Assembly: GCF_048403405.1 (NCBI RefSeq)
Contig: NZ_CP183129.1
DNA from: Escherichia coli
Lineage (GTDB): Bacteria > Pseudomonadota > Gammaproteobacteria > Enterobacterales > Enterobacteriaceae
Direction: 5' to 3' (one strand)
DNA: 64,000 nt
Shown here: piece by piece, positions 7,799 through 25,862 of the stretch
Layout: every line of letters begins with the position of its first letter
How positions within the stretch are numbered: position 1 is the first letter of the stretch
The notes under the pieces: generated by a model
The model's input: the letters and a program-made list of their open reading frames with translations, nothing else
What the model was told of the DNA's origin: nothing
Database searches by the model: none
Program-made: the position numbers and the translations under genes

Positions 7799-9175
7799 TT
7801 ATTGCTGCCAACCGCCACCAAGTGCGGTATATAAAGAAATTTCGTTAACCTGACGGGCATAATTCAGGTCAAGTAAAGTTTGTCGGGTTGCAAATAAAGA
7901 ACGTTCGGCATCCAGCACTTCCAGATAACTGACTGCGCCGTGCTGATATAATGCCCGCGCCCGTTGCAAAGTAATTTGCAGCGATGCCAGATAACGCTGC
8001 TGGGCGCTAATTTGATCGTTCAGGCTTTGACGTAATGCCAGCGCATCTGCCACTTCTTTAAAGGCATTCTGGATTTTCTGTTCATAATTCACCACCGACT
8101 GCTGCTGGCGAATTTCGGCGATATCCAGATTGGCCTGGTTGCGTCCGGCATTAAAAATGGGGATCTCAATTTTGGGAATAAAATTCCACATCCCGCTGCT
8201 GGCGTTAAATAAGGACGACAGATCGCTGCTGGCGGTCGATATTCCGCTGGTCAGACTGATAGACGGGAAAAATGCCGCGCGTGCAGCGCCAATATTGGCA
8301 TTAGCCGCCATCAACGCGTGTTCAGCTTCCATAATATCCGGGCGCTGCAATAAGATTTGCGACGACAAGCCCGCCGGTAATTTAACGCTTTGCAGGCTGT
8401 CGCTGTTTACTGTTTGCGCTTGCGGCAGCTTGCCGTAGCTTCCCAGCAACAGTTGCAATGCATTATTCGCCTGCGCCAGTTCCCCCTGACGTTTAGCGAT
8501 GTCGCTGCGGGTACTTTCTATCACCCCGCGAGCCTGTTCCAGCGCCAGAACATTGCTGCTACCGGTCAACAGTTGTTTTTCGACAAACGCATATGACTGC
8601 TGATAATTACGCAGCGTTTCTTCGGCTATTTGCAATTGCGCATACGCCAGTTGCTGATTGAAATAGCTTTGCGCGACATTAGAAACCAGCAGAATATGCA
8701 CCGCGCGCTGGGCTTCCTCAGTGGCTAAATAATTTTGGCGCTCGGCTTCGCTCATGTTCTTTAAGCGACCGAAAAAATCGAGATCAAAGCTGGCGTTAAG
8801 GCCGGTCGAAAACTCCCGTGTCGTGGCGGTATTCCCTTTAAGATTACCGCTCCAGCTGCCGCTGCCCTCGCCATTGAGCTGTGGGTAGCGGTCGGCATCG
8901 GTCAGACGATATTGCGCCCGTGCCTCCTGCACTTTCAGCGTCGCCATGCGCAAATCCCGGTTATTCACCAGCGCCTCGCTAATCAGCGTCTTCACCTGAT
9001 TATCAATAAAAAAGGTGCGCCAGCCCGCGTTCTGGTAGTTATCTGCTGCGTTAACCAGGCCGTTCTGGCTGAGTGAGAACTGCTTCGGTACGGGCATTGC
9101 CGGACGCTGATAATCCGGTGCCAATGAACAACCGGTTAGCGCAAGGGCCACACAAAATGGCAGAAGTTTAGGCAC
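7799..9175 (-). CDS. cusC: Outer membrane factor CusC, 5' end and promoter replaced by IS26
   Basis: 458-aa ORF whose first codon (GTG, complement of 9173-9175) lies inside the IS26 terminal repeat; recalled native N-terminus MSPCKLLPFCV is here (V/M)PKLLPFCV. Confidence 0.85.
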   Translation of the reverse strand: MPKLLPFCVALALTGCSLAPDYQRPAMPVPKQFSLSQNGLVNAADNYQNAGWRTFFIDNQVKTLISEALVNNRDLRMATLKVQEARAQYRLTDADRYPQLNGEGSGSWSGNLKGNTATTREFSTGLNASFDLDFFGRLKNMSEAERQNYLATEEAQRAVHILLVSNVAQSYFNQQLAYAQLQIAEETLRNYQQSYAFVEKQLLTGSSNVLALEQARGVIESTRSDIAKRQGELAQANNALQLLLGSYGKLPQAQTVNSDSLQSVKLPAGLSSQILLQRPDIMEAEHALMAANANIGAARAAFFPSISLTSGISTASSDLSSLFNASSGMWNFIPKIEIPIFNAGRNQANLDIAEIRQQQSVVNYEQKIQNAFKEVADALALRQSLNDQISAQQRYLASLQITLQRARALYQHGAVSYLEVLDAERSLFATRQTLLDLNYARQVNEISLYTALGGGWQQ

Positions 9176-9990
9176 TGTTGCAAATAGTCGGTGGTGATAA
9201 ACTTATCATCCCCTTTTGCTGATGGAGCTGCACATGAACCCATTCAAAGGCCGGCATTTTCAGCGTGACATCATTCTGTGGGCCGTACGCTGGTACTGCA
9301 AATACGGCATCAGTTACCATGAGCTGCAGGAGATGCTGGCTGAACGCGGAGTGAATGTCGATCACTCCACGATTTACCGCTGGGTTCAGCGTTATGCGCC
9401 TGAAATGGAAAAACGGCTGCGCTGGTACTGGCGTAACCCTTCCGATCTTTGCCCGTGGCACATGGATGAAACCTACGTGAAGGTCAATGGCCGCTGGGCG
9501 TATCTGTACCGGGCCGTCGACAGCCGGGGCCGCACTGTCGATTTTTATCTCTCCTCCCGTCGTAACAGCAAAGCTGCATACCGGTTTCTGGGTAAAATCC
9601 TCAACAACGTGAAGAAGTGGCAGATCCCACGATTCATCAACACGGATAAAGCGCCCGCCTATGGTCGCGCGCTTGCTCTGCTCAAACGCGAAGGCCGGTG
9701 CCCGTCTGACGTTGAACACCGACAGATTAAGTACCGGAACAACGTGATTGAATGCGATCATGGCAAACTGAAACGGATAATCAACGCCACGCTGGGATTT
9801 AAATCCATGAAGACGGCTTACGCCACCATCAAAGGTATTGAGGTGATGCGTGCACTACGCAAAGGCCAGGCCTCAGCATTTTATTATGGTGATCCCCTGG
9901 GCGAAATGCGCCTGGTAAGCAGAGTTTTTGAAATGTAAGGCCTTTGAATAAGACAAAAGGCTGCCTCATCGCTAACTTTGCAACAGTGCC
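9171..9990 (+). mobile_element. IS26 (IS6 family), copy 1, 820 bp
   Basis: 14-bp terminal inverted repeats GGCACTGTTGCAAA at 9171-9184 and complement at 9977-9990; internal tnp26 ORF. Confidence 0.95.
9234..9938 (+). CDS. tnpA: IS26 transposase Tnp26 (R29H variant)
   Basis: 234-aa protein MNPFKGRHFQRDIILWAVRWYCKYGISY(H)ELQ... matches recalled Tnp26; codon 29 is CAT here and CGT in copy 2. Confidence 0.95.
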   Translation: MNPFKGRHFQRDIILWAVRWYCKYGISYHELQEMLAERGVNVDHSTIYRWVQRYAPEMEKRLRWYWRNPSDLCPWHMDETYVKVNGRWAYLYRAVDSRGRTVDFYLSSRRNSKAAYRFLGKILNNVKKWQIPRFINTDKAPAYGRALALLKREGRCPSDVEHRQIKYRNNVIECDHGKLKRIINATLGFKSMKTAYATIKGIEVMRALRKGQASAFYYGDPLGEMRLVSRVFEM

Positions 9991-10439
9991 AATTTTACGC
10001 CGTCGGCGGTACGCAGCCAGCGCGGGGATTTGAGTCCTTCCGTGAAATTCCAGACCAGCTCACACAGCAGCCCGGTCAGGGTTTGCTCCATTTTTGGTTC
10101 CGCCGGACGTTCCAGCAGAAGCTGGAGTAGTGCGAGGCAGTATTCGCACAAGGAATCAGGTTCGGAAATAAAGTGCTCTGGTGTGGCGGGAAGGGTATCC
10201 ACGGTCAGGCTTTCGGTAAGATGCGGTGGGATGGGGTCGTGTAGTGTGGGTTGCAGTAGCGCAAGAGCCGCGTGAAGCCGCCCGCAGAGCGCCAGTCGTA
10301 GCGCTGGATCGTCGGTTTCAATCAGGGTTTCGGCAAAGCGGGCGCAGTAGTCAGCAAGGACAGTGAAATCCGTGGTGGCATTGAAGGGGACGGTCAATAG
10401 ATCGAGTAAATCGCTGTCAGTGGTGAGGATTGTAGCCAT
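9972..10439 (-). CDS. Hypothetical protein, 3' end truncated by IS26 (last ~5 codons and stop supplied by IS26)
   Basis: 155-aa ORF with GGAGG 8 nt upstream of ATG; acidic, Leu-rich product; reading frame runs into the IS26 end at 9990. Confidence 0.5.
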   Translation of the reverse strand: MATILTTDSDLLDLLTVPFNATTDFTVLADYCARFAETLIETDDPALRLALCGRLHAALALLQPTLHDPIPPHLTESLTVDTLPATPEHFISEPDSLCEYCLALLQLLLERPAEPKMEQTLTGLLCELVWNFTEGLKSPRWLRTADGVKLALLQS

Positions 10440-10785
10440 AGGGCAACCTCCGATAAGTGGGTGTTCAAGCCACCACCGGAGAGGCTAATCTCGCGGGTGG
10501 TGGAACCGGGCAGGGTTAGCCTTACCAGCCTTATCGGACACTGGCGCGTCTTGCGACGCCCCCGCCCGGCCCACCATTGAGATGTAACCGTGCGAACAAC
10601 ACAAAAAAAGACGCTGGCGCGTCATGTGTCGCCGATAAGATTTCTTCAGGAGGCTAATCCCGACGCCTGATTTTGCAGGCGCGGGAGAAAGATACTGCGA
10701 TTGGTCATGAGTGGCAAGGGCTACATCATGTTTACCGACATCTCACGCAAAAATACCCTGATTATTAATAGCGAAAATCAGTTTC
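10440..10785 (-). other. GC-rich, repeat-rich non-coding region downstream of the RT gene; candidate structured ncRNA
   Basis: No ORF of 60 aa or more; hairpin ccaccacc/ggtggtgg (10481-10503); inverted pair ccgataag/cttatcgg (10451-10458, 10530-10537); direct repeats gaggctaatc (10490-10499 and 10651-10660) and ctggcgcgtc (10541-10550 and 10611-10620). Confidence 0.3.
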
Positions 10786-13700
10786 TTATTTTGGCGGTAG
10801 CTTTTTGCGGTTCTTTGCCAACTGGAATCCTTCAGGTAACGGTTTGAATTTATCGCCGCCTTTAGGCCAGCGTTTTGCCCTGCTCTGAAATGCCCTTAAC
10901 GAGTCGATATCCAGCGTTGCAGCGACCACAAAGTCATTATCACCGCCCTTCACACGAGCAATATCACGCATAAAGGGTTCTTTTGCCGGGGAACGTACGC
11001 GACTATCGCCGTATTTTCGGTTATTCACTAAAATAGTATAGGCATGAATATCCAGCGCTGCTGATTCAATCAACGATGCAAACGTATCTAGATCTTTATT
11101 CCAGCTCAATACCATTAATGCATCGAGTGCGCCCTGAAAACGGATCCTCGCTTTACTATTCTGGAGTTCAGAGCAAATCATAACGCCAAAATTGACGCCG
11201 TGATGAATATATACCGGCTTACGTTGTTTAACATTAAGTGTCGAATCCCAAGACTTACCATAAGTTGAAAATAATGCCTCATCTTCACCTACGGCGGGTT
11301 CCAGCTTGGGTTGCCATATTTTGACACTCGCTGGATAGCCGAGTCTGTTATCTGAAAGGACAAGTACGGCCTCACTCTTCAGTTGATTATCGTCTAAGTG
11401 GCGGTATTCTGTTCCCGCAATTAGACTGATACCCGCCGAACTCAAACGATCAGCAATACTGTTAACCCAGCGTAACGGGATTGAAAGCTCAGGGAATAAA
11501 ACATAATCAGGTTTAGGAGATAGTTTCAATGTTGCATTAACCAGTTCAGAAATCCGCTGGTACCTTGAACGGGACAAGTTAGATTTATTGCAGGCCATTT
11601 TAGCCCAGTCGTCCTCCTCTGTTTTAATGCTGGTTAGCGCAACGACAACTTTATGTTTCCTGTCTGTGCCAATATGAATGAATTTCTTAGGCCGAGCTTT
11701 TTTTGTCGCTTCATCTGAGTCCTGCTCCGATGCTAGCAACGTCGGTTTGATCCATACTCCGCGTAATGCTTGAGTATATTTTGCCCAAATGGTGGACGGT
11801 CTCTCATCTGGTTTTTTGTCGGATGTGGAGGGTAATCCAACACATTCGGGGGCCAGTTCTGATATTTCAGCGGGTGTTAAAGGACGTGTAGGGAAAATGT
11901 AAGGTAGGTAACTTTCGTTTTTACGATTTCCTTTAGCCACTTTTTCCAGTCGGGTATTCTTGGTTGATTTCAAAAATAGCTTAATAACGTCAATATCAAT
12001 AAGCGATGAGTCGCTCATTAATTTCAGTATTTTAACTTCTTTTTTACTATCACGCTGATTAACAAGTTTTTCTGCCGACTGACTCTTTACGATCTGTTTA
12101 TAAGGTTCCTTTGCTAAATCAGCTCGAGCTACCAATGGCGCTTTTAAATAAAAATCTGCTGAATCAAAGCGAAGATCCAGTAAATCCTTTAGATTCGTCA
12201 GACTTTGTGAAATATGATTAAAAAATGTATCCGCAAGGCACTCTTCTTTCTTTGAACGTTTATCAAGAAATAATCTGTCAGGACTGTAATATCGTGTCGC
12301 TGCATCAACAAATAGCCAGCTTAATGTGCCTTTTATACAGCGCCAAAGATCATTTACTGCTCGAGTTTTGCAACCATTTATATTCACTTCCTTACCTGAA
12401 GTAATCACCGATGCCAACAGGTTGATGGATTCGTAAGCTTTAAGTACAATTTTTTCCGCGTGCTGCCATTCATTCATACTGATAGCAAAGCCAAGCAGCC
12501 TTGGCAGATAACTAAAATGTGCAAATAGATTATCAGCCCTAAGAATATGGTTGTAGGCAAACTGATAAAACTCTTCCCGCTGTTCTTTCCATTCACTTGG
12601 AGGCAGATCTCGTGCCAGTGTTTCAACGTAGCGTAATTGCAGTGACCAGCCCAAACGACGAATGGTTAATCCATCCGCACGGCGCAGAGTATCGGCATTT
12701 TCACCTACACTACCGGCAGCGGAAAGGACTTTAGCTGCGGTGGAGTGTTCCAGTTGATCCGGTGAAGGCATCAAGCGGTGTTCACTAGAAAGCTCGTAGA
12801 TCTCCTTTTCGATACTGTCGAGCAGGTCTATTCCAGCCCTCCCTTGAAGCACGAAAAGTTTTTGCTTATCGGATTGTAACTGGATGGTGGTCTTACCCTG
12901 GAAATGCTCGCCCTGCTGTATTTGCCATATTTGTTTTTGCTCGTTTTTCAAATAAACGCAATCATTGCCAAGCCTATCTTGCAGCAATAACATAAATTCG
13001 TGATTATTAGTAATTGTCCCTGTATCGCGTATTACAAGGAACATATCATCGACATAACGACCGTAGTGAATTGGTGATAGTTTTTCAATGACTAATTTAT
13101 CCCAATGGTGTAGCAATATATTTGAAATGATCCGACTGGCTGTTAATCCAATGACCAGACCACCATTAATAACAGGTGTTTTGTACGCTATTTTCTTTCC
13201 AAATGCCGCTGCGCCGTCAGACCAGTGCTTTAAGAATACTGCTAACTGTGCAGTAAACGCTTTTTCATCCTCAGTCAGTTTTATGTTTAGTGTGTTATAG
13301 AGATCATCAGAGGTTATAGCCAGTGGATCAATAAAATGATAGTAACTTTTTAAATCCAGTGAGGCGGCGATAATGTCACGATCTTTTTCCAACTCGTCAC
13401 GTATAGCTTTTAAGCCATCACCACGCCATTTTTGGTAGGGCTGGAAGTAGGGGCTAAAAGAACCCACGGCACTGATATGGAATGGATTATCCTGCTCATT
13501 GCTAAATAATTCATCATTACGAATACGCTTTAGCCGCGCGCCATAGCAACAGTTATCTAAGCTGGCATCAAATTTATGCCCGACCATGTTAATCCATAGT
13601 GCAGAGATAATGTGACTATCAACCGGGAAGTCACCAATAATACGAAACTCTGGTATCAGATCAAAATTATTAAATAAATGGTCGGCTGCTCGTTTAGGAT

Positions 13701-13995
13701 TAGAAAAGTGGACGTGTCCATTTTGGGATTCATGTTTTTTCTTTGTGGTTAATTTTTTCGGTAACAAACGAAATTTGCCAATCAACTTCTTATTGCTACT
13801 GAATCCATCTTCGCTCTGCAAAAGATCTAAGAGTTTTTGCAGGTTTTCAAGTAATTCCTGCTCATACTCGGCAAATTTGATAGCAACAGGAAATGTATTC
13901 TCAAAGAAGCTATCGGCTTTTGCTTTCCGGTAAGCGACCAGAAGGTCTTCAATCGTCAGATCATCCCAGCCAGTGAAAATTGCCTGATATGTCAT
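10786..13995 (-). CDS. Defence-associated reverse transcriptase fused to C-terminal nitrilase (CN-hydrolase) domain, DRT type 1-like (UG1-like)
   Basis: 1069-aa ORF with AAGGA RBS; RT motifs LDLKSYYHFID, GGLVIGLTASRIISNILL, YVDD (complement of 13045-13056); nitrilase triad context FPELS, VKIWQPK, GVMICSEL (Cys codon complement of 11173-11175). Confidence 0.75.
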   Translation of the reverse strand: MTYQAIFTGWDDLTIEDLLVAYRKAKADSFFENTFPVAIKFAEYEQELLENLQKLLDLLQSEDGFSSNKKLIGKFRLLPKKLTTKKKHESQNGHVHFSNPKRAADHLFNNFDLIPEFRIIGDFPVDSHIISALWINMVGHKFDASLDNCCYGARLKRIRNDELFSNEQDNPFHISAVGSFSPYFQPYQKWRGDGLKAIRDELEKDRDIIAASLDLKSYYHFIDPLAITSDDLYNTLNIKLTEDEKAFTAQLAVFLKHWSDGAAAFGKKIAYKTPVINGGLVIGLTASRIISNILLHHWDKLVIEKLSPIHYGRYVDDMFLVIRDTGTITNNHEFMLLLQDRLGNDCVYLKNEQKQIWQIQQGEHFQGKTTIQLQSDKQKLFVLQGRAGIDLLDSIEKEIYELSSEHRLMPSPDQLEHSTAAKVLSAAGSVGENADTLRRADGLTIRRLGWSLQLRYVETLARDLPPSEWKEQREEFYQFAYNHILRADNLFAHFSYLPRLLGFAISMNEWQHAEKIVLKAYESINLLASVITSGKEVNINGCKTRAVNDLWRCIKGTLSWLFVDAATRYYSPDRLFLDKRSKKEECLADTFFNHISQSLTNLKDLLDLRFDSADFYLKAPLVARADLAKEPYKQIVKSQSAEKLVNQRDSKKEVKILKLMSDSSLIDIDVIKLFLKSTKNTRLEKVAKGNRKNESYLPYIFPTRPLTPAEISELAPECVGLPSTSDKKPDERPSTIWAKYTQALRGVWIKPTLLASEQDSDEATKKARPKKFIHIGTDRKHKVVVALTSIKTEEDDWAKMACNKSNLSRSRYQRISELVNATLKLSPKPDYVLFPELSIPLRWVNSIADRLSSAGISLIAGTEYRHLDDNQLKSEAVLVLSDNRLGYPASVKIWQPKLEPAVGEDEALFSTYGKSWDSTLNVKQRKPVYIHHGVNFGVMICSELQNSKARIRFQGALDALMVLSWNKDLDTFASLIESAALDIHAYTILVNNRKYGDSRVRSPAKEPFMRDIARVKGGDNDFVVAATLDIDSLRAFQSRAKRWPKGGDKFKPLPEGFQLAKNRKKLPPK

Positions 13996-14289
13996 GCGTT
14001 ATCGTCCTTAGATTACAGTCTGTACAGAATTAGCCAGCCGTTTCATGCCCGAAGGGGGGCTCTTGACACCAGTAATCCATCAGTGAGGCTGGCAATAATT
14101 TTGATTTGTATCCATGTTACACGCTCCCCGCAACCAGTCCGAGCATATATTTGTCACATTTTTCCCGAAAGTGATTAAGTTTGAATTTTTTGTTTAATGT
14201 CGATTTTTAGTCGACAAAATGAGGAATAAGTAAACTATTTCTTGCTGTGGCGTATCCCTGAATCTACACTGGTTTAAATATTTGTACTA
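13996..14289. promoter_or_regulatory. Divergent promoter region between RT gene and abiEi, with palindrome gtcgatttttagtcgac (14200-14216)
   Basis: AT-rich 294-bp spacer between divergently oriented genes; inverted repeat is a candidate AbiEi operator. Confidence 0.35.
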
Positions 14290-15093
14290 ATGTCTATTCA
14301 GAGGCGACAGTTGCCAAACTATCTAAACTGGCTGATGCAGCACACGCTACCCGGCCAGGTGCTGCTCCAGTCATGGCTTACCCGCAACGGCATAGATCGT
14401 AAGCTCTCTTATCTCTATGTGAAGAATGGCTGGCTCAGGCGGATCGCTCACGGCGTATACTGCCGGACGGGCCGTGAGCCGGATTGGGTAGACGCGGTTT
14501 ACTGCCTTCAAACACAGTGGGAAAAGCCTGTTCGGGTGGCGGGGCTAACCAGCCTTGCGCTTCAGGGCCATGCGCACTATACCGAACCGGGTAAGCCGCA
14601 GGTCTGGCTCGCGCTTCCGGCTTACGTTAAGCTGCCGGGATGGTTTGCTGCCTTCGAACAATCTGCAACATTTATCACGCTGTATACATCGGGGCTTACC
14701 GTAGATGTAACGTCATTGACTACGGAACTGAAAATTGGCGACCGCCAGTTAGCAGGCAGTGCCCCGGAACTGGCCGCGTATGAGATCGCCTGCGGCGTTC
14801 CTTCGTTGATATCGTTCGAACATGCCGATGCTCTGTTTCAGGGGATGAATCTTCTCAGCCCACGCAAATTGCAGGCACTGCTTCGCGCCAGCCATTCGGT
14901 TAAAACCAACCGGGTGATGCTTTACCTTGCCCGGCGTAATGGACACCCTTATTTTCAGTATATTGATCAAAGCGGTATAGAAACAGGTACGGGAAAGCGG
15001 CAAATCATACCCGGCGGCTGGCTGGAGCCGGATTATCAAATTACTGTTCCACGCGCATTTAAACCGGAAGGAGTCGAAGATGGATCTGCGTGA
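14290..15093 (+). CDS. abiEi: AbiEi-family antitoxin/transcriptional regulator (type IV TA / abortive infection)
   Basis: 267-aa ORF, N-terminal motif ...GWLRRIAHGVY typical of AbiEi; overlaps downstream AbiEii gene by 14 nt. Confidence 0.7.
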   Translation: MSIQRRQLPNYLNWLMQHTLPGQVLLQSWLTRNGIDRKLSYLYVKNGWLRRIAHGVYCRTGREPDWVDAVYCLQTQWEKPVRVAGLTSLALQGHAHYTEPGKPQVWLALPAYVKLPGWFAAFEQSATFITLYTSGLTVDVTSLTTELKIGDRQLAGSAPELAAYEIACGVPSLISFEHADALFQGMNLLSPRKLQALLRASHSVKTNRVMLYLARRNGHPYFQYIDQSGIETGTGKRQIIPGGWLEPDYQITVPRAFKPEGVEDGSA

Positions 15094-16000
15094 TAGCTAT
15101 GCCCGGCAGGTCAAACTGTTGATGGCCGCTCTGCCGTATGTGGCGAAGGAGTCCTGTTTCGCGTTGAAAGGCGGCACCGCAATCAATTTGTTTGTGCAGG
15201 ATTTTCCCCGTCTGTCGGTGGATATTGATCTGGCGTACAAGAGCTTTGCGGATCGCGATACTGATTTGGCGGCTATCAACGACGCTTTGAAGAGGATTAC
15301 TGCATCGCTGAACGGCAGACCGGGGATCACCGCGATTCGGCAGGAAAATAAAGCGGATGAAAAGCGCATCATTGTGAATACCGCTGATGCAAAGATTAAG
15401 ATCGAGGTTAGCCCGGTCTGGCGCGGGCTGTTGTTGCCTCCGGCAGAAATGCCTGTGTGCGAACGTGTGGAAATGGAGTATGGCTTCACCACCATGAGTG
15501 TCGTCTCGCTGGCGGATCTTTATGGCGGTAAAATCTGCGCTGCGCTTGATCGTCAGCACCCGCGCGATCTGTTTGATGTGCTGAATATGCTGGAGAAACC
15601 GGGACTGATGCGGGAGATCTTTGACGGTTTTCTTTGTTATCTGGCAGGCCATCCCCGCCCCATCGCCGAGTTGCTGGCTCCAAACTGGGATACAGAGCGG
15701 ATCGCCACGTTGTACGCGCAGGAATTTTCGGGGATGACTCAGCAGGAAACGTCGCTGGAATCGCTGCTGTCAGTAACGACTTTGCTGCCGCAGGCGTTGA
15801 AGTCACATCTTACGGATCTGGATCGCGAGTTCTTGCTCAGTTTTAAGCAAAACAGCCCTGACTGGTCGCGGTATCGCTATCCTGAAATTCAGCATCTTCC
15901 GGCTATTCGCTGGAAGCAACGTAATCTGGCGGTGCTGAAAGATAAAAATCCGGCGAAGTATGTGGCGGCGGTGAATAAGCTAGAGAGGGTGCTGGCGTAA
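15080..16000 (+). CDS. abiEii: AbiEii/AbiGii-family nucleotidyltransferase toxin
   Basis: 306-aa ORF with SD GGAAGGA; motif ALKGGTAINLF...RLSVDIDLAY characteristic of AbiEii (DUF1814). Confidence 0.75.
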   Translation: MDLRDSYARQVKLLMAALPYVAKESCFALKGGTAINLFVQDFPRLSVDIDLAYKSFADRDTDLAAINDALKRITASLNGRPGITAIRQENKADEKRIIVNTADAKIKIEVSPVWRGLLLPPAEMPVCERVEMEYGFTTMSVVSLADLYGGKICAALDRQHPRDLFDVLNMLEKPGLMREIFDGFLCYLAGHPRPIAELLAPNWDTERIATLYAQEFSGMTQQETSLESLLSVTTLLPQALKSHLTDLDREFLLSFKQNSPDWSRYRYPEIQHLPAIRWKQRNLAVLKDKNPAKYVAAVNKLERVLA

Positions 16001-16364
16001 TCAATAGACCAGCATTAATCACGGATGATTACCAATCAGACAGATATGGTTAAATCATCGAATTCATAATTAATACTTTTTCTTACGCCGCTGAACAGCT
16101 TGAAAAGGATACATATTTTAAATATCAGTGAAGTGGACAGTTTATTGCCGTTATTAATAGAGATGGAGGAATAAATACGCGTATTCTACTATTGCAACAA
16201 AAACAACGATGATGATCAGTTTTCATAATGAAGTAACCTGACAGATATAAAAATGTTGATTGAGGCTCAATGCCCGGATGAAGGTTGTCGAGGGAGCCAG
16301 GTGGTTTTTTCTTTTGGGTGATCTCCATTGCTGGATAGTCCCCTCTTTCTCGCTCAAAGCAGAC

Positions 16365-16689
16365 TGTACTGCACCCATTTTGTTGGACGATGAAATGGAA
16401 TAGCCCCTAATATGTCAAAGCCAAAATACCCTTTTGAAAAGCGCCTTGAAGTCGTGAATCACTACTTCACAACTGATGATGGTTACAGGATCATCTCGGC
16501 ACGTTTTGGTGTCCCCCGAACCCAGGTCAGGACATGGGTTGCCCTCTATGAAAAACATGGAGAAAAAGGTTTAATTCCCAAACCTAAAGGCGTTAGTGCT
16601 GATCCAGAGTTGCGTATTAAGGTCGTGAAAGCTGTGATCGAGCAGCACATGTCCCTTAATCAGGCTGCTGCTCACTTTATGCTTGCTGG
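16365..16689 (+). mobile_element. IS150 (IS3 family) left-end fragment, truncated by IS26
   Basis: Begins TGTACTGCACCCATTTTGTTGGACG; encodes the N-terminal ~90 aa of InsJ/OrfA (MSKPKYPFEKRLEVVNHYFTTDDGYRIISARFGVP...) ending at the IS26 boundary. Confidence 0.8.
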
Positions 16690-17509
16690 GGCACTGTTGC
16701 AAATAGTCGGTGGTGATAAACTTATCATCCCCTTTTGCTGATGGAGCTGCACATGAACCCATTCAAAGGCCGGCATTTTCAGCGTGACATCATTCTGTGG
16801 GCCGTACGCTGGTACTGCAAATACGGCATCAGTTACCGTGAGCTGCAGGAGATGCTGGCTGAACGCGGAGTGAATGTCGATCACTCCACGATTTACCGCT
16901 GGGTTCAGCGTTATGCGCCTGAAATGGAAAAACGGCTGCGCTGGTACTGGCGTAACCCTTCCGATCTTTGCCCGTGGCACATGGATGAAACCTACGTGAA
17001 GGTCAATGGCCGCTGGGCGTATCTGTACCGGGCCGTCGACAGCCGGGGCCGCACTGTCGATTTTTATCTCTCCTCCCGTCGTAACAGCAAAGCTGCATAC
17101 CGGTTTCTGGGTAAAATCCTCAACAACGTGAAGAAGTGGCAGATCCCACGATTCATCAACACGGATAAAGCGCCCGCCTATGGTCGCGCGCTTGCTCTGC
17201 TCAAACGCGAAGGCCGGTGCCCGTCTGACGTTGAACACCGACAGATTAAGTACCGGAACAACGTGATTGAATGCGATCATGGCAAACTGAAACGGATAAT
17301 CAACGCCACGCTGGGATTTAAATCCATGAAGACGGCTTACGCCACCATCAAAGGTATTGAGGTGATGCGTGCACTACGCAAAGGCCAGGCCTCAGCATTT
17401 TATTATGGTGATCCCCTGGGCGAAATGCGCCTGGTAAGCAGAGTTTTTGAAATGTAAGGCCTTTGAATAAGACAAAAGGCTGCCTCATCGCTAACTTTGC
17501 AACAGTGCC
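16690..17509 (+). mobile_element. IS26, copy 2, 820 bp, same orientation as copy 1
   Basis: Terminal repeats GGCACTGTTGCAAA at 16690-16703 and complement at 17496-17509. Confidence 0.95.
16753..17457 (+). CDS. tnpA: IS26 transposase Tnp26
   Basis: 234-aa protein matching recalled Tnp26 (R29). Confidence 0.95.
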   Translation: MNPFKGRHFQRDIILWAVRWYCKYGISYRELQEMLAERGVNVDHSTIYRWVQRYAPEMEKRLRWYWRNPSDLCPWHMDETYVKVNGRWAYLYRAVDSRGRTVDFYLSSRRNSKAAYRFLGKILNNVKKWQIPRFINTDKAPAYGRALALLKREGRCPSDVEHRQIKYRNNVIECDHGKLKRIINATLGFKSMKTAYATIKGIEVMRALRKGQASAFYYGDPLGEMRLVSRVFEM

Positions 17510-19543
17510 AAACCGTTAGCGATTATGGTTCCGGCGTGGAATGAAACGGGCGTCATCGGCAATATGGCCGAGCTGGCGGCGACCACGCTCGACTATGAAA
17601 ACTATCATATCTTTGTTGGCACCTACCCCAACGACCCCGATACACAGCGTGATGTTGACGAAGTGTGCGCTCGCTTCCCGAACGTGCATAAGGTAGTCTG
17701 CGCGCGTCCTGGCCCCACCAGCAAAGCCGACTGCCTGAACAACGTGCTGGACGCCATCACCCAGTTTGAGCGTAGCGCCAATTTCGCTTTTGCTGGTTTT
17801 ATTCTGCATGACGCCGAAGACGTAATTTCACCGATGGAATTGCGTCTGTTCAACTATCTGGTCGAGCGTAAAGATCTGATTCAGATCCCGGTGTATCCGT
17901 TCGAACGCGAATGGACGCACTTCACCAGCATGACTTACATTGATGAGTTTTCAGAACTGCATGGCAAAGATGTTCCGGTGCGTGAAGCCCTCGCCGGACA
18001 AGTGCCCAGCGCAGGCGTCGGTACCTGTTTCAGCCGCCGCGCCGTGACCGCACTGTTAGCTGACGGTGACGGTATTGCTTTCGACGTGCAGAGTCTTACT
18101 GAAGATTACGACATTGGTTTCCGCCTGAAAGAAAAAGGTATGACGGAAATTTTTGTCCGTTTTCCGGTGGTGGACGAAGCCAAAGAACGCGAGCAGCGTA
18201 AATTTTTACAGCACGCGCGGACGTCAAACATGATCTGCATGCGCGAATATTTCCCTGATACCTTTTCGACTGCGGTTCGACAAAAATCTCGCTGGATCAT
18301 CGGCATTGTTTTCCAGGGCTTTAAAACCCACAAATGGACCTCCAGCCTGACGCTGAACTACTTTCTCTGGCGCGACCGCAAAGGGGCAATCAGTAACTTT
18401 GTCAGCTTTCTCGCGATGCTGGTGATGATCCAGCTTCTGCTGTTACTGGCGTATGAAAGTTTGTGGCCCGATGCCTGGCATTTCCTTTCTATTTTCAGCG
18501 GCAGCGCATGGTTAATGACCCTGCTGTGGCTAAACTTTGGTTTGATGGTTAACCGCATCGTGCAGCGGGTGATTTTTGTCACTGGCTACTACGGTCTGAC
18601 GCAGGGGCTGCTATCTGTCCTGCGTCTTTTCTGGGGCAACCTGATTAACTTCATGGCCAACTGGCGCGCGTTAAAACAGGTACTTCAACACGGCGATCCA
18701 CGTCGTGTCGCGTGGGATAAAACAACGCATGACTTCCCCAGCGTGACTGGCGATACCCGCTCGTTGCGCCCGTTAGGCCAAATTCTGCTGGAAAATCAGG
18801 TCATCACTGAAGAACAACTCGATACAGCACTGCGTAATCGCGTCGAAGGTCTACGCCTGGGCGGTTCAATGCTGATGCAGGGGCTGATTAGCGCCGAACA
18901 GCTGGCACAGGCGCTGGCAGAGCAAAACGGCGTGGCGTGGGAATCCATCGACGCCTGGCAGATCCCGTCCTCGCTGATTGCCGAAATGCCGGCCTCCGTG
19001 GCGCTGCATTATGCAGTGCTGCCGCTGCGTCTGGAAAATGATGAGTTAATTGTCGGCAGTGAAGATGGTATTGACCCGGTTTCGCTGGCGGCCCTGACGC
19101 GTAAAGTCGGACGCAAAGTGCGTTACGTCATTGTTCTGCGGGGACAAATTGTCACGGGGTTACGTCACTGGTATGCACGCCGACGCGGTCACGATCCGCG
19201 GGCAATGTTGTACAATGCGATTCAGCATCAGTGGCTCACGGAACAGCAGGCCGGTGAAATCTGGCGGCAATATGTGCCGCATCAGTTCCTGTTCGCCGAA
19301 ATACTGACCACGCTCGGTCATATTAATCGTTCAGCAATTAACGTGTTGTTATTGCGCCATGAACGCAGTTCTCTGCCGCTCGGCAAGTTTTTGGTCACCG
19401 AAGGCGTTATCAGCCAGGAAACGTTGGATCGCGTCCTGACAATTCAACGCGAATTACAAGTTTCGATGCAATCACTATTACTCAAAGCAGGTTTAAACAC
19501 AGAACAGGTTGCGCAACTGGAGTCCGAAAATGAAGGAGAATAA
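17510..19543 (+). pseudogene. nfrB: nfrB (c-di-GMP-controlled glycosyltransferase, phage N4 adsorption protein B), 5'-truncated by IS26
   Basis: Native reading frame begins directly at the IS26 right end (KPLAIMVPAWNETGVIGN...); ~70 N-terminal codons of the recalled 745-aa NfrB are missing; longest ORF 17525-19543. Confidence 0.85.
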
Positions 19544-22502
19544 CCTTAATCGCGTCATCGGATGGTCTGGTTTACTGCTGACGTCTTTATTGAGTACCAG
19601 CGCACTCGCAGACAATATCGGCACCAGCGCAGAAGAGCTGGGGCTGAGCGATTATCGCCATTTTGTTATTTATCCCCGTCTCGATAAGGCGCTGAAGGCA
19701 CAGAAAAATAACGACGAAGCAACCGCCATCCGCGAATTTGAATATATACACCAACAGGTGCCGGATAATATTCCGCTAACTTTATACCTTGCGGAAGCCT
19801 ATCGCCATTTTGGTCATGATGACCGGGCGCGGCTGTTGCTTGAGGATCAACTGAAACGTCACCCAGGAGATGCCCGACTTGAGCGCAGTCTGGCGGCTAT
19901 TCCAGTTGAAGTGAAAAGCGTTACGACTGTTGAAGAACTGCTTGCCCAGCAAAAAGCGTGCGACGCTGCGCCGACCCTGCGTTGTCGCAGTGAAGTCGGG
20001 CAGAATGCCCTGCGGCTGGCACAATTACCTGTCGCCAGAGCGCAACTGAACGATGCGACGTTTACTGCATCGCCGGAAGGAAAAACGCTGCGAACCGATC
20101 TGCTGCAACGCGCAATCTACCTGAAACAATGGTCCCAGGCAGATACGCTATACAATGAAACACGCCAGCAGAACACATTAAGCGCGGCAGAACGCCGCCA
20201 GTGGTTTGATGTGCTTCTTGCCGGGCATCTGGACGATCGGATCCTGGCGCTGCAATCACAGGGGATCTTCACCGATCCTCAGTCATATATTACTTACGCG
20301 ACCGCGCTGGCTTATCGTGGCGAAAAAGCACGCCTCCAGCATTATCTCATTGAAAATACGCCGCTATTTACCACGGACGCACAAGAGAAAAGTTGGCTCT
20401 ATCTGTTATCTAAATACAGCGCCAACCCCGTTCAGGCGTTGGCGAATTATACGGTACAGTTTGCCGACAACCACCAGTATGTTGTTGGCGCGACGCTACC
20501 GGTGCTGTTAAAAGAAGGTCAGTACGACGCAGCGCAAAAACTGCTCGCCACCCTCCCCGCCAATGAAATGCTTGAGGAGCGTTATACCGTTAGCGTGGCG
20601 ACCCATAACAAGGCTGAAGCTCTGCGTCTGGCACGATTGCTGTATCAGCAAGAACCGGCAAATCTTACCCGCCTGGATCAACTGACCTGGCAACTGATGC
20701 AGAACGAGCAGTCACGCGAAGCTGCCGATTTATTGCTGCAACGCTATCCTTTCCAGGGCGATGCGCGTGTCAGCCAGACTTTAATGGCGCGACTGGCGTC
20801 TCTGCTGGAAAGTCATCCTTACCTGGCAACTCCGGCGAAGGTGGCGATTTTATCGAAACCCTTACCGCTGGCGGAGCAACGTCAGTGGCAAAGTCAGTTG
20901 CCGGGTATTGCAGATAATTGCCCGGCAATAGTTCGCTTGCTGGGCGATATGTCGCCTTCCTACGATGCCGCCGCCTGGAACCGTCTGGCAAAGTGTTATC
21001 GGGACACGCTACCCGGTGTGGCGTTGTATGCATGGCTTCAGGCCGAACAACGACAACCGAACGCCTGGCAACATCGTGCGGTAGCCTATCAGGCGTATCA
21101 GGTTGAGGACTACGCCACCGCACTGGCGGCCTGGCAGAAAATCAGTCTTCACGACATGAGCAATGAGGATCTGCTTGCTGCTGCCAATACCGCCCAGGCG
21201 GCAGGAAATGGTGCGGCTCGCGATCGCTGGCTTCAGCAGGCAGAACAACGTGGGCTGGGAAACAATGCCCTCTACTGGTGGCTACATGCGCAACGTTACA
21301 TTCCTGGTCAGCCGGAACTCGCACTGAACGATCTCACGCGCTCAATCAATATTGCGCCTTCTGCCAACGCTTACGTTGCGCGGGCGACAATTTATCGCCA
21401 ACGTCATAATGTCCCGGCGGCGGTGAGTGATTTGCGCGCCGCACTGGAACTGGAACCGAATAATAGCAACACCCAAGCAGCGCTCGGTTACGCCTTGTGG
21501 GATAGCGGTGATATCGCACAGTCGCGGGAAATGCTCGAACAGGCGCATAAAGGGCTACCGGACGATCCGGCACTTATCCGACAACTGGCCTACGTGAACC
21601 AGCGTCTGGATGACATGCCTGCGACGCAGCACTACGCCCGGCTGGTGATTGATGACATTGATAATCAGGCGCTGATAACCCCACTGACCCCAGAGCAAAA
21701 TCAGCAACGCTTCAATTTCCGCCGTCTGCATGAGGAGGTCGGTCGCCGCTGGACGTTCAGTTTCGATTCTTCCATCGGCTTGCGTTCCGGCGCGATGAGT
21801 ACCGCTAACAATAATGTCGGCGGCGCAGCGCCAGGGAAAAGCTATCGTAGCTACGGGCAACTGGAAGCCGAGTACCGCATCGGACGCAATATGCTGCTGG
21901 AAGGCGACCTGCTCTCAGTTTATAGCCGCGTCTTTGCCGATACCGGAGAAAACGGGGTGATGATGCCGGTGAAAAATCCGATGTCCGGCACCGGTCTGCG
22001 CTGGAAGCCGCTGCGCGATCAGATCGTTTTCCTCGCCGTCGAACAGCAGTTGCCGCTGAACGGGCAAAATGGCGCATCCGATACCATGCTGCGCGCCAGC
22101 GCCTCATTCTTTAATGGCGGCAAATACAGCGACGAATGGCACCCGAACGGTTCAGGCTGGTTTGCCCAAAACCTGTACCTCGATGCGGCGCAATATGTCC
22201 GCCAGGATATTCAGGCGTGGACGGCAGATTATCGCGTAAGCTGGCATCAGAAGGTGGCGAACGGACAGACTATTGAGCCTTACGCTCACGTTCAGGACAA
22301 CGGTTATCGTGATAAAGGCACTCAGGGCGCGCAGCTTGGCGGTGTCGGGGTCCGCTGGAATATCTGGACCGGCGAGACGCACTACGACGCCTGGCCGCAC
22401 AAAGTCAGTCTCGGCGTCGAATATCAACATACCTTTAAGGCGATTAATCAACGTAACGGAGAGCGCAACAACGCGTTTCTCACCATTGGAGTGCACTGGT
22501 AA
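19530..22502 (+). CDS. nfrA: Outer membrane protein NfrA (phage N4 adsorption protein A)
   Basis: ATG at 19530 gives 990 aa with signal peptide MKENNLNRVIGWSGLLLTSLLSTSALA; TPR-rich. Confidence 0.9.
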   Translation: MKENNLNRVIGWSGLLLTSLLSTSALADNIGTSAEELGLSDYRHFVIYPRLDKALKAQKNNDEATAIREFEYIHQQVPDNIPLTLYLAEAYRHFGHDDRARLLLEDQLKRHPGDARLERSLAAIPVEVKSVTTVEELLAQQKACDAAPTLRCRSEVGQNALRLAQLPVARAQLNDATFTASPEGKTLRTDLLQRAIYLKQWSQADTLYNETRQQNTLSAAERRQWFDVLLAGHLDDRILALQSQGIFTDPQSYITYATALAYRGEKARLQHYLIENTPLFTTDAQEKSWLYLLSKYSANPVQALANYTVQFADNHQYVVGATLPVLLKEGQYDAAQKLLATLPANEMLEERYTVSVATHNKAEALRLARLLYQQEPANLTRLDQLTWQLMQNEQSREAADLLLQRYPFQGDARVSQTLMARLASLLESHPYLATPAKVAILSKPLPLAEQRQWQSQLPGIADNCPAIVRLLGDMSPSYDAAAWNRLAKCYRDTLPGVALYAWLQAEQRQPNAWQHRAVAYQAYQVEDYATALAAWQKISLHDMSNEDLLAAANTAQAAGNGAARDRWLQQAEQRGLGNNALYWWLHAQRYIPGQPELALNDLTRSINIAPSANAYVARATIYRQRHNVPAAVSDLRAALELEPNNSNTQAALGYALWDSGDIAQSREMLEQAHKGLPDDPALIRQLAYVNQRLDDMPATQHYARLVIDDIDNQALITPLTPEQNQQRFNFRRLHEEVGRRWTFSFDSSIGLRSGAMSTANNNVGGAAPGKSYRSYGQLEAEYRIGRNMLLEGDLLSVYSRVFADTGENGVMMPVKNPMSGTGLRWKPLRDQIVFLAVEQQLPLNGQNGASDTMLRASASFFNGGKYSDEWHPNGSGWFAQNLYLDAAQYVRQDIQAWTADYRVSWHQKVANGQTIEPYAHVQDNGYRDKGTQGAQLGGVGVRWNIWTGETHYDAWPHKVSLGVEYQHTFKAINQRNGERNNAFLTIGVHW

Positions 22503-23393
22503 ATGCGTAAGTTCATTTTCGTATTGCTGACACTGCTTTTGGTCAGCCCTTTTTCCTTTGCGATGAAAGGTATTATCTGGCAACCACAAAACCGTGATAG
22601 TCAGGTTACCGATACCCAGTGGCAGGGGCTGATGAGTCAGTTACGTTTGCAAGGCTTCGATACCCTGGTTTTGCAATGGACCCGTTACGGCGATGCATTC
22701 ACCCAGCCAGAACAGCGCGCGTTATTGTTTAAGCGTGCAGCAGCTGCGCAACAGGCTGGCCTGAAGCTGATTGTCGGGCTGAATGCCGATCCGGAATTTT
22801 TTATGCACCAGAAACAGTCATCCGCGGCGCTGGAAAGCTATCTTAACCGCCTACTGGCTGCCGATCTCCAGCAAGCCAGATTATGGAGCGCCGTACCTGG
22901 CGTAACGCCGGATGGCTGGTACATCAGCGCGGAAATTGACGACCTGAACTGGCGCAGCGAAGCCGCCCGTCAGCCTTTGCTGACATGGTTAAACAACGCG
23001 CAGCGGTTGATTAGCGATGTTTCAGCAAAACCGGTTTATATCAGTAGTTTTTTCGCCGGAAACATGTCGCCCGATGGCTATCGCCAACTGCTGGAACAAG
23101 TTAAAACAACCGGCGTTAATGTCTGGGTACAGGATGGCAGCGGCGTGAATAAACTTACCGCTGAACAGCGTGAACGTTATCTACAGGCCAGCGCCGATTG
23201 CCAAAGCTCCGCCCCAGCAAGCGGCATTGTTTATGAACTGTTTGTCGCCGGCAAAGGCAAAACCTTTACAGCGAAACCGAAACCGGATGCAGAGATCGCC
23301 TCGCTGTTAGCGAAACGTTCCTCTTGCGGTAAAGACACGCTCTATTTCTCTCTGCGCTATTTGCCCGTTGCGCACGGCATTCTCGAGTATTAA
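22503..23393 (+). CDS. ybcH: DUF4434 family protein YbcH
   Basis: 296-aa ORF with signal peptide; synteny. Confidence 0.85.
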   Translation: MRKFIFVLLTLLLVSPFSFAMKGIIWQPQNRDSQVTDTQWQGLMSQLRLQGFDTLVLQWTRYGDAFTQPEQRALLFKRAAAAQQAGLKLIVGLNADPEFFMHQKQSSAALESYLNRLLAADLQQARLWSAVPGVTPDGWYISAEIDDLNWRSEAARQPLLTWLNNAQRLISDVSAKPVYISSFFAGNMSPDGYRQLLEQVKTTGVNVWVQDGSGVNKLTAEQRERYLQASADCQSSAPASGIVYELFVAGKGKTFTAKPKPDAEIASLLAKRSSCGKDTLYFSLRYLPVAHGILEY

Positions 23394-23575
23394 ATCTCCT
23401 CCAGGTAAGTCGGGTACGACCTGGCTTACCTCTTTCGCTCTCGTCAGAATTCCATCAAGATTAATTGCTAAAAAGCGTGCTAAAGAAAGAAGATCGTTAT
23501 CGGCGAACGGGCCGATCACTCATGCAGGAAGCATAGATCCTTTGAGCGGAGTTTCTGATATCTGAGGAGTGCGAA

Positions 23576-24337
23576 ATGCAATTGAGCAGCAGTGAACCTT
23601 GCGTGGTGATCCTGACCGAAAAAGAGGTAGAGGTAAGCGTCAATAACCATGCTACGTTTACCCTTCCGAAAAACTACCTGGCCGCCTTCGCGTGCAACAA
23701 TAACGTCATTGAACTCTCAACGTTAAATCACGTATTAATCACCCACATCAACCGTAACATCATCAACGATTATCTGTTGTTTTTAAATAAGAACTTAACC
23801 TGTGTAAAGCCCTGGTCGCGGCTGGCTACCCCGGTTATCGCTTGTCATAGCCGTACACCGGAAGTGTTCCGGCTAGCCGCCAACCACAGCAAGCAGCAAC
23901 CCAGCAAACCCTGCGAAGCGGAGTTGACGCGCGCATTGCTTTTTACCGTATTGTCTAACTTTCTTGAGCAATCGCGGTTTATTGCCCTACTGATGTATAT
24001 CTTACGCAGCAGCGTCCGCGACAGCGTCTGCCGCATTATTCAAAGCGATATTCAGCATTACTGGAATCTGCGAATTGTCGCCAGTTCGCTATGTTTAAGC
24101 CCCAGCCTGCTCAAAAAGAAATTAAAAAACGAAAATACCAGCTATAGCCAGATTGTCACAGAGTGTCGTATGCGTTACGCCGTACAGATGTTATTGATGG
24201 ATAACAAAAATATCACTCAGGTAGCGCAATTATGTGGCTATAGCAGCACGTCGTACTTTATCTCTGTTTTTAAGGCGTTTTACGGCCTGACACCGTTGAA
24301 TTATCTCGCCAAACAGCGACAAAAAGTGATGTGGTGA
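23576..24337 (+). CDS. envY: AraC-family porin thermoregulator EnvY
   Basis: 253-aa ORF with C-terminal AraC HTH; synteny. Confidence 0.85.
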   Translation: MQLSSSEPCVVILTEKEVEVSVNNHATFTLPKNYLAAFACNNNVIELSTLNHVLITHINRNIINDYLLFLNKNLTCVKPWSRLATPVIACHSRTPEVFRLAANHSKQQPSKPCEAELTRALLFTVLSNFLEQSRFIALLMYILRSSVRDSVCRIIQSDIQHYWNLRIVASSLCLSPSLLKKKLKNENTSYSQIVTECRMRYAVQMLLMDNKNITQVAQLCGYSSTSYFISVFKAFYGLTPLNYLAKQRQKVMW

Positions 24338-24382
24338 AGGGCAAAGCGGAAACGGATAGGACGGGGATAAATGAAGAAGAAA

Positions 24383-24459
24383 TGGCGCGCCCTGCAGGAT
24401 TCGAACCTGCGGCCCACGACTTAGAAGGTCGTTGCTCTATCCAACTGAGCTAAGGGCGC
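24383..24459 (-). tRNA. argU: tRNA-Arg (anticodon UCU)
   Basis: Reverse complement reads GCGCCCTTAGCTCAGTTGGATAGAGCAACGACCTTCTAAGTCGTGGGCCGCAGGTTCGAATCCTGCAGGGCGCGCCA, 77 nt with CCA end. Confidence 0.95.
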
Positions 24460-24701
24460 GTTGATACCGCAATGCGGTGTAATCGCGTGAATTATACGGT
24501 CAACCCTTGCTGAGTCAATGGCTTTTGATCTGGTTGCTGAACAAGTGAACGACCGCGTCTGATTTTCTGATTTATTTCGCTATAGCGGCAAACAAACGTA
24601 CACCGCTGCGCGTCTGAATCAAGAAAACCCGTATTTTCATGTATCAAAGTACAATTTCCCGCCCTAACGGAAAATTGTCCGATCCTATGAGACTGGTAAC
24701 T

Positions 24702-25334
24702 ATGAAACCAACGTCGGTGATCATTATGGATACTCATCCTATCATCAGAATGTCTATTGAAGTTCTGTTGCAAAAAAACAGTGAATTGCAAATTGTCCTG
24801 AAAACGGATGATTATCGCATAACCATCGATTATCTCCGAACCCGTCCTGTTGATTTAATCATTATGGATATAGACTTGCCCGGTACAGACGGTTTTACCT
24901 TCCTGAAAAGGATCAAACAAATCCAGAGTACAGTGAAAGTATTATTTTTATCATCGAAATCAGAATGCTTTTATGCTGGCAGAGCGATACAAGCTGGTGC
25001 TAACGGCTTTGTCAGTAAATGCAATGATCAGAATGATATTTTTCATGCCGTTCAGATGATCCTCTCCGGATACACTTTTTTTCCCAGCGAAACGCTCAAC
25101 TATATAAAAAGCAATAAATGTAGCACGAATAGTTCAACGATCACTGTGCTATCTAATCGTGAAGTGACCATATTACGTTATCTGGTTAGCGGATTATCCA
25201 ATAAAGAAATTGCCGATAAGTTATTACTTAGCAATAAAACAGTTAGTGCGCATAAATCTAATATTTATGGCAAGCTAGGTTTGCATTCAATTGTAGAGCT
25301 TATCGACTATGCCAAATTATATGAATTAATATAA
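24702..25334 (+). CDS. fimZ: LuxR-family response regulator FimZ
   Basis: 210-aa protein from MKPTSVIIMDTHPIIRMSIEVLL; receiver plus LuxR HTH. Confidence 0.9.
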   Translation: MKPTSVIIMDTHPIIRMSIEVLLQKNSELQIVLKTDDYRITIDYLRTRPVDLIIMDIDLPGTDGFTFLKRIKQIQSTVKVLFLSSKSECFYAGRAIQAGANGFVSKCNDQNDIFHAVQMILSGYTFFPSETLNYIKSNKCSTNSSTITVLSNREVTILRYLVSGLSNKEIADKLLLSNKTVSAHKSNIYGKLGLHSIVELIDYAKLYELI

Positions 25335-25336
25335 TA

Positions 25337-25852: not shown

Positions 25853-25862
25853 TCTCCGTACC

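Follow-up and report, generated by a model that had tools for sequence, protein, structure and literature searches.

A probable AbiE toxin-antitoxin operon of the AbiEi_3 subfamily with a candidate four-repeat operator in Escherichia coli

AbiE systems are among the commonest defence and toxin-antitoxin (TA) systems, and those members that have been studied come from Gram-positive bacteria, from mycobacteria and, in one case, from Serratia. Their toxins carry the nucleotidyltransferase motifs of the DUF1814 family, namely hG[G/S]-x15-DhD with a family-specific Arg, K..A...R and (+)DxxD, and mutating these motifs in the AbiEii protein of Streptococcus agalactiae abolishes its toxicity (PMC3985639). 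The type VII mechanism has been shown for S. agalactiae AbiEii at T65 and for MenT3 at S78, together with tRNA modification (bioRxiv 10.64898/2026.01.19.700257). In Mycobacterium tuberculosis, the antitoxin Rv2827c binds four 23-bp inverted repeats, arranged in two pairs, within positions -1 to -131 of its start (PMC7319586). In Serratia sp. ATCC 39006, the toxin AbiE-T2 is toxic in E. coli, is rescued by its cognate antitoxin only and perturbs tRNA levels (PMC7725324). Here we describe an AbiE gene pair, abiEi-abiEii, that lies beside a reverse transcriptase (RT) gene in a 64,000-nucleotide stretch of Escherichia coli DNA (contig NZ_CP183129.1 of assembly GCF_048403405.1; hereafter the window). 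We estimate the probability at roughly 0.78 that this pair forms an intact, autonomously regulated AbiE toxin-antitoxin/abortive-infection operon of the AbiEi_3 subfamily.

The two genes are open reading frames (ORFs) on the plus strand: abiEi (14311..15093), a predicted antitoxin and autorepressor of 260 amino acids (aa) counted from a TTG codon at 14311, and abiEii (15080..16000), by family a DUF1814 nucleotidyltransferase toxin of 306 aa with its own AAGGAG Shine-Dalgarno sequence. The antitoxin gene stands 5' of the toxin gene and the two share 14 nt (15080-15093), an overlap which recurs in those orthologous loci that have two unbroken ORFs. A preliminary description, made by reading the DNA and its translations, had recognised an AbiEi/AbiEii pair with this overlap from the peptides NGWLRRIAHGVY, GGTAINLF and VDIDLAY; these peptides are found in the translated ORFs, and the assignment is borne out by the ORF coordinates, by Pfam, by PADLOC and by the matches of fold. 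In the case of AbiEii, the expected family was recovered (Pfam PF08843, DUF1814/AbiEii, COG2253; E = 3.9e-35 over residues 14-221). In the case of AbiEi, the family that had been named, AbiEi_4 (PF13338), gave a marginal match of 17 residues (E = 0.0046), and the protein falls instead into AbiEi_3_N (4.5e-29) and AbiEi_3 (2.7e-35), its N-terminal part being a winged-helix domain for DNA binding and its C-terminal part the domain of antitoxicity (AbiEi/COG5340-like). PADLOC recognised AbiEi at 2.5e-79 and AbiEii, over its full length, at 4.4e-116, and PGAP annotation in 832 genomes agrees with this assignment; PHROGs gave no match for either protein. The pair is hence an uncharacterised member of a well-known kind.

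Among the described systems, AbiE-2 of Serratia sp. ATCC 39006, also a member of the Enterobacterales, is the only characterised one that we noted with an antitoxin of the AbiEi_3 family, and the phospho-acceptor serine of its toxin is numbered S46, like the candidate acceptor of the E. coli protein (PMC7725324). In the SanaTA and RlegTA systems, for which phage T7 phenotypes have been reported, the toxin is likewise of the DUF1814 family and the antitoxin COG5340-like, their antitoxins being smaller (136-205 aa). The S. agalactiae AbiEi differs further: it has 195 aa against 260 aa in E. coli, an identity of about 12% and a different Pfam family (DUF4095-like, in contrast to AbiEi_3).

Examination of an alignment of 27 homologues showed that residues K30, G31, G32, R44, S46, D48 and D50 of AbiEii, and also K151, A154, R158, R162, D163 and D166, are invariant. 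These residues make up motifs I-II (K30-G31-G32, 15 residues and D48-I-D50, with R44 as the Arg in the string R44-L-S46-V-D48-I-D50), motif III (K151-I-C-A154-A-L-D-R158) and motif IV (R162-D163-L-F-D166). S46 stands two residues before the first catalytic Asp, in the register of R63/T65/D67/D69 of the S. agalactiae protein, the equivalence of S46 and T65 being drawn from this motif register and not from superposition. AlphaFold2 models reached high predicted confidence (pLDDT of 91.3 for AbiEii and 91.2 for AbiEi), and the AbiEii model was closest to MenT4/Rv2826c (6y56; Foldseek E = 6.5e-8, TM score 0.57). On these models each of the E. coli genes appears to have its counterpart in fold in the M. 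tuberculosis Rv2827c/Rv2826c AbiE system, at 12-17% identity. The ratio of non-synonymous to synonymous substitution rates (dN/dS) ranged between 0.07 and 0.15 for the two genes, with dS values up to 1.25, and between 0.07 and 0.09 for abiEii alone, which is strong purifying selection. Neither ORF is broken, and each is 100% identical to its counterpart in seven other records, AbiEii having 306 aa here and 309 aa in most orthologues.

The start of AbiEi deserves separate treatment, as the preliminary description had opened its ORF at an ATG (14290..15093). The frame is present and its start is most likely the TTG at 14311, where PGAP also places it. The frame opened by the ATG at 14290 is hit by in-frame stops in E. 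coli TB06052, Affinibrenneria and Brenneria alni; AbiEi homologues at 32-50% identity start at the aligned MxxxLNWL; a Shine-Dalgarno sequence, AGAGG, lies 7 nt 5' of the TTG; and the TTG is invariant in 16 of 16 loci. With this start the intergenic region towards the divergent RT gene measures 315 bp, the gap from ORF to ORF (13996-14289) being 294 bp. A catalytically acting antitoxin would be in keeping with the combination of its own weak start and the strong AAGGAG-ATG start of the toxin.

The control region of the operon was studied in an alignment of the upstream regions of 14 orthologous loci from other Enterobacterales (AbiEi 81-92% identical) and of two other E. coli variants. Mean identity in this alignment was 68%, with sharp islands of conservation. 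The 294-bp divergent region had been called AT-rich, and its size stands, the AT-richness being moderate (G+C of 0.40 at 13996-14310 vs 0.51 for the whole window). A palindrome in it had been put forward as a candidate operator at 14200-14216; the palindrome is real, its GTCGA-N7-TCGAC form lying one position off at 14199-14215, and a longer form, TGTCGA-N7-TCGACA at 14198-14216, is the sole exact match in the window. Of the orthologous promoters in which the distal region is present, 14 in number, nearly all keep both arms (1.66-1.78 bits per column vs 0.64 in the flanks), a conservation that bears out its candidacy as an operator, and to judge by this alignment the palindrome is more than a product of chance. 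It is the inner core of a larger candidate operator made of four 25-bp half-sites. In the distal pair, IR1 (14179-14203) and IR2 (14211-14235) are inverted and separated by 7 bp; in the proximal pair, IR3 (14272-14296) and IR4 (14304-14328) are likewise inverted and separated by 7 bp, and this pair is conserved in all 15-16 aligned loci. The half-site consensus is GTTTAaatAtTt-N4-AaaTGTCGA, of which the outer end, GTTT, and the inner end, TGTCnA, are kept in nearly all orthologous loci with the distal region. Mutual identity among IR1-IR4 was 62%, against 27.4 +/- 3.6% in shuffled sequences, none of which reached the observed value (0/5000), and the repeats are conserved across Enterobacterales (13-15 loci) despite saturated synonymous divergence.

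Between the two pairs, in a gap of 36 bp, sits the predicted sigma-70 promoter of abiE (14242..14270, plus strand), with a -35 element TTGCTG at 14242-14247, a -10 element TACACT at 14265-14270 and a 17-bp spacer, which would put the start of transcription near 14277. This promoter was drawn from conservation: TTG at 14242-44, A14266 and T14270 are invariant in the 14 orthologous promoters, the -10 element having the form TAnAnT. The Shine-Dalgarno sequence AGAGG (14299-14303) falls inside the 7-bp gap of the proximal pair, and IR4 spans the TTG start and codons 1-6. An outer GTTTAAnAAT box lies exactly at -39 from the abiEi start; three homologues at 43-50% identity keep the outer GTTTA box at -39 and have no TGTCGA core, and the TGTCGA palindrome, looked for 5' of AbiEi_3 homologues in that range of identity, was absent. 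Two earlier models, one of two separate palindromes with separate GTTTAAnAAT boxes and the other of a promoter with its -10 element in the spacer of the palindrome, were replaced by the model of four half-sites, which covers all conserved blocks. As far as the alignment can tell, four half-sites account for all the conserved islands of the control region, and by analogy with the described antitoxins we infer that AbiEi binds them. A generic scan for promoters and terminators found no terminator directly 3' of abiEii.

This layout of four repeats in two pairs parallels that of the M. tuberculosis Rv2827c/Rv2826c (MenA4/MenT4) system, and differs from the two repeats bound by S. agalactiae AbiEi (PMC3985639). 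The two systems are only 14-17% identical in sequence, and their four-repeat layouts also differ in detail. Half-sites are of 25 bp in E. coli, with gaps of 7 bp within pairs and 36 bp between them, and of 23 bp in the case of Rv2827c, with gaps of 13 bp and 4 bp; furthermore, in E. coli the promoter is placed between the pairs, the proximal pair runs into the coding sequence and the antitoxin belongs to the AbiEi_3 family.

Taken from these homologues, the following mechanism can be proposed. AbiEii would be a Mg2+-dependent nucleotidyltransferase adding nucleotides to the 3' end of tRNA and thereby arresting translation and growth. The C-terminal domain of AbiEi would neutralise it, most likely by inducing auto-phosphorylation of Ser46 (type VII), and its winged helix would repress the operon from the four 25-bp half-sites, IR1 and IR2 lying 5' of the -35 element and IR3 and IR4 over the start codon, the ribosome-binding site and the region of transcription start. 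The toxin might then be freed when phage infection, or the loss of the element, upsets the balance. The purifying selection on both genes, and the frameshifts that hit only the toxin gene in Mixta and Kluyvera, agree indirectly with a growth-inhibitory toxin neutralised by its antitoxin, and a part in phage resistance is suggested only by the defence-island context. The pair would serve abortive infection or the stabilisation of its island, or it would serve both.

Several results weigh against the reading of the pair as an autonomously regulated AbiE operon or against parts of it. No NCBIfam model matches AbiEi or AbiEii, and the PDB, searched by sequence both with the single proteins and with profiles, returned no relevant solved structure, for which reason the comparison was made by fold. 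Whatever is proposed here of toxicity and its neutralisation, of DNA binding, of phosphorylation, of the tRNA target and of phage defence would be carried over from homologues that are at most 17% identical, and a role in defence cannot be assumed since the AbiE system of S. agalactiae, placed in E. coli, did not protect it against 32 coliphages. As for the operator, the register of the half-sites was picked after inspecting the data; E. coli TB06052 and Mixta keep the proximal pair only, the distal pair being absent; and in the commonest E. coli variant (SE15 type) the inner arm of IR2 is mutated to TGGACG. IR4 is partly conserved coding sequence and IR3 is AT-rich, so that the protein, the ribosome-binding site or the promoter could explain part of the conservation. 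Finally, the generic scan called no promoter between the divergent genes.

The gene divergent from abiEi encodes a UG5-large reverse transcriptase-nitrilase fusion (10786..13995, minus strand; 1069 aa; PADLOC RT_UG5-nitrilase, E = 0, 1034 bits), in agreement with the earlier view of it as a defence RT. The AbiE module with its upstream region was present in 832 of 5426 complete E. coli genomes (15%), ST131-type strains included, and the UG5 RT in 260 of the 5426. In five E. coli genomes that were inspected, AbiE lies at or beside a tRNA-Thr (thrW) island that adjoins proA. Most often it is not the RT gene that stands divergent to abiEi: the place is taken by hsdR of a type I restriction-modification (R-M) system in 552 E. 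coli genomes, and a DUF4747 gene in E. coli TB06052 (one strain examined). In other genera the same slot holds the UG5 RT (Serratia marcescens and a metagenome-assembled genome, MAG), type I R-M (Brenneria alni) or no cargo. What remains constant while the neighbour changes is AbiE with a control region of about 180-220 bp.

Comparison of these islands located the limits of the control region. Homology between RT-type and hsdR-type islands begins at 14087, and the RT gene therefore carries a leader or upstream region of its own of 91 bp (13996..14086, minus strand), the four repeats belonging to AbiE; cargo-less loci join the homology at about 14125-14140. The G+C content also differs, being 0.42 for the RT gene and 0.53-0.54 for AbiE. 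The preliminary description had supposed a shared promoter region through which the RT and AbiE genes might be co-regulated, and this found no support, as the 91 bp next to the RT gene travel with it, the neighbour varies and the G+C differs. We conclude that the RT and AbiE genes are neighbours in a defence hotspot and not a co-regulated unit, the UG5 RT being an independent defence gene in an exchangeable cargo slot that reaches from the abiE control region to the isrK/C4 RNA genes of the thrW island. A leftward RT promoter, sought by eye in 13996-14200, gave nothing convincing, and literature searches on AbiE with thrW and on thrW as a defence hotspot found nothing. A stretch of about 40 bp (14087-14124 of the window; AACGTGTAACATnGnT..AAA on the minus strand) is common to RT-type and hsdR-type islands (also at about 8001-8040 of locus L002 and 5' of the RT gene in locus L015), whereas loci that have no cargo lack it; the stretch may be a cassette border common to these islands, or else a promoter of the cargo.

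At the other end of the slot, directly downstream of the RT gene, Rfam found a C4 antisense RNA (10493-10581, minus strand; 71.1 bits, gathering score 45) and isrK (10604-10682, minus strand; 68.8 bits, gathering score 50) together with a near-threshold c4-a1b1 target element (10493-10695 in all). A coding sequence annotated by PGAP as 'ash family protein' overlies this C4/isrK DNA. The isrK/C4 pair also flanks AbiE in Pectobacterium, Trabulsiella, Serratia and E. coli SE15, and the isrK promoter stays with isrK across islands. The module resembles the immI of phage P1 and the isrK of Gifsy-1 and looks like the other fixed border of the cargo slot. Beyond it lies a framework gene of about 155 aa (9972..10439, minus strand; MATI.T..HPLL...), whose last codons are replaced by an end of the insertion sequence (IS) IS26. 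Orthologues of this gene flank AbiE in Pectobacterium, Trabulsiella, Serratia and Symbiopectobacterium, always downstream of the C4 RNA and beside AbiE or the cargo in several genera; no family match to it was found in PADLOC, PHROGs or NCBIfam.

Some of the loci compared are examples of decay of the module. The toxin gene is frameshifted and the antitoxin gene intact in Mixta theicola (locus L005, 6770-7698) and in Kluyvera (locus L013, 6770-7721), and in the MAG (locus L018, 6001-6157) AbiEi is truncated and the RT gene split. In the Kluyvera locus a JetC (Wadjet) gene a few kb downstream of AbiE (9079-12366) adds to the defence-island context.

The RT-AbiE segment of the window is not at thrW. 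Two identical, direct copies of IS26 bracket 6699 bp: the left one (9171..9990, plus strand; IS6-family transposase, 7.5e-82; 14-bp terminal inverted repeats) is a 100% direct repeat of the right one (16690..17509, plus strand), which abuts an nfrB gene lacking about 67 N-terminal residues. Positions 9991-16364 are 100% identical to the thrW island of TUM14771 and of six other records, and identity stops at 16364, where an IS3-family fragment (orfA; 16365..16689, plus strand; weak matches to the N-terminal part of IS3/IS481 transposases) that is cut by IS26 marks the right end of the thrW-derived DNA. We conclude that IS26 copied the RT and AbiE genes from a thrW island into the cus/nfrB locus, which bears out the preliminary suggestion of a mobilised defence-island segment; the 6.7 kb bounded by IS26 look like a translocatable unit that carries defence, not resistance, genes. 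The arrangement IS26-RT-AbiE at cus/nfrB was found in 0 of the 5426 complete E. coli genomes. At this locus (9120-9200 and 17510-19543) the left IS26 interrupts cusC after codon 4 and takes away its first four codons, an in-frame GTG inside the IS26 end continuing into cusC, and cusR and cusS are missing. The nfrB gene is needed for adsorption of phage N4, and the rearrangement may change copper/silver sensing and sensitivity to N4.

A search of a plasmid collection found no real plasmid copy of the segment, its one full match, NZ_CP146678.1, duplicating chromosomal DNA. In this 64,057-bp record of E. coli MS 69-1, which is filed as a plasmid, positions 20418-26791 contain the 100% identical thrW segment without IS26. 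The chromosome of that strain has the segment as well, and the copy may have arisen as a duplicate in the assembly or by excision of the element. A scan of viral contigs returned only two distant loci and was uninformative.

The rival that we take most seriously, although it remains tentative, is that AbiE is mainly an addiction system stabilising the thrW island or the IS26-bounded unit, residual toxin arresting those cells that lose the DNA. AbiE systems are known to stabilise plasmids (PMC3985639) and an integrative and conjugative element (PMC11062541), here the island has a pseudogene for its integrase and AbiE for its constant gene, the failure of the S. agalactiae system to protect against the coliphages points the same way, and a frameshifted toxin with an intact antitoxin, as in Mixta and Kluyvera, is typical of TA decay. 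Against this, addiction is compatible with defence, genes of defence are consistently found as neighbours of AbiE (UG5 RT, type I R-M and, in Kluyvera, JetC), and protection against phages is indeed conferred by lactococcal AbiE and by related DUF1814 systems. An extension of the addiction reading would make the abiE control region and isrK/C4 the fixed borders of a dedicated slot exchanging whole defence systems (UG5 RT, type I R-M, the DUF4747 pair) in Enterobacterales islands integrated at tRNA-Thr, with AbiE as the keeper that makes the island, and here the two-system IS26 unit, hard to lose, and with the distal repeat pair possibly setting the expression of the cargo; we hold this to be rather doubtful. 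At the far end of the scale is the view that the pair is a decaying remnant, inactive in this strain. The island is degraded and pseudogenes and IS elements adjoin the pair, whose toxin is slightly shorter than most orthologues; the low dN/dS values, the intact ORFs shared without change by seven other records, the full set of catalytic residues and the confident models make such inactivity highly improbable.

Two further alternatives concern the control region. In one, the palindrome and the repeats would not be sites for AbiEi, and would be promoter or UP elements, sites for host factors or relics of duplication, AbiEi regulating elsewhere or not at all. The AT-richness of the repeats, a -10-like TATAAT in the distal spacer of Atlantibacter and Kluyvera, the distant AbiEi_3 loci without TGTCGA palindromes and the broken arm that the SE15 type tolerates would all agree with it. 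We nevertheless consider it unlikely because the G/C-containing arms, TGTCGA and TCGACA, are the most conserved columns and it is the AT-rich spacers that vary, because a promoter alone would not be expected to show four copies of a repeat in dyad symmetry at a constant spacing of 7 bp, and because the closest structural homologue shares the layout. In the other, the RT and AbiE genes would form one co-regulated unit, AbiEi acting at the palindrome on a divergent promoter that also drives the RT gene. The genes are divergent and 315 bp apart, and UG5 is also found near an AbiEii-like gene in S. meliloti; as the cargo-specific DNA is short (91 bp for the RT gene and only about 56 bp upstream of hsdR in SE15-type islands), a promoter in the shared stretch 14087-14178 is possible, and so is a residual effect of AbiEi on such a leftward promoter. 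Yet the same AbiE control region stands beside type I R-M (552 genomes), the RT (260), DUF4747 or no cargo at all; loci that have no cargo possess the distal pair, and TB06052, which bears cargo, lacks it; IR1 is about 185 bp away from the RT start codon; and the two parts differ in G+C, the scan having found no leftward promoter. Co-regulation as a unit thus seems to us improbable, and we keep to the reading of abiEi-abiEii as an operon under its own control.

Being present in 15% of complete genomes and at most 17% identical to any characterised member, the AbiE subfamily of E. coli would provide a native E. coli model for the type VII auto-phosphorylation mechanism, for the tRNA target and for a four-site operator. 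The locus also illustrates that two defence genes may lie side by side and yet need not be coupled, the RT gene being one of several interchangeable neighbours of AbiE, and its IS26-bounded copy indicates that IS26, an element associated with resistance, can move defence systems too.

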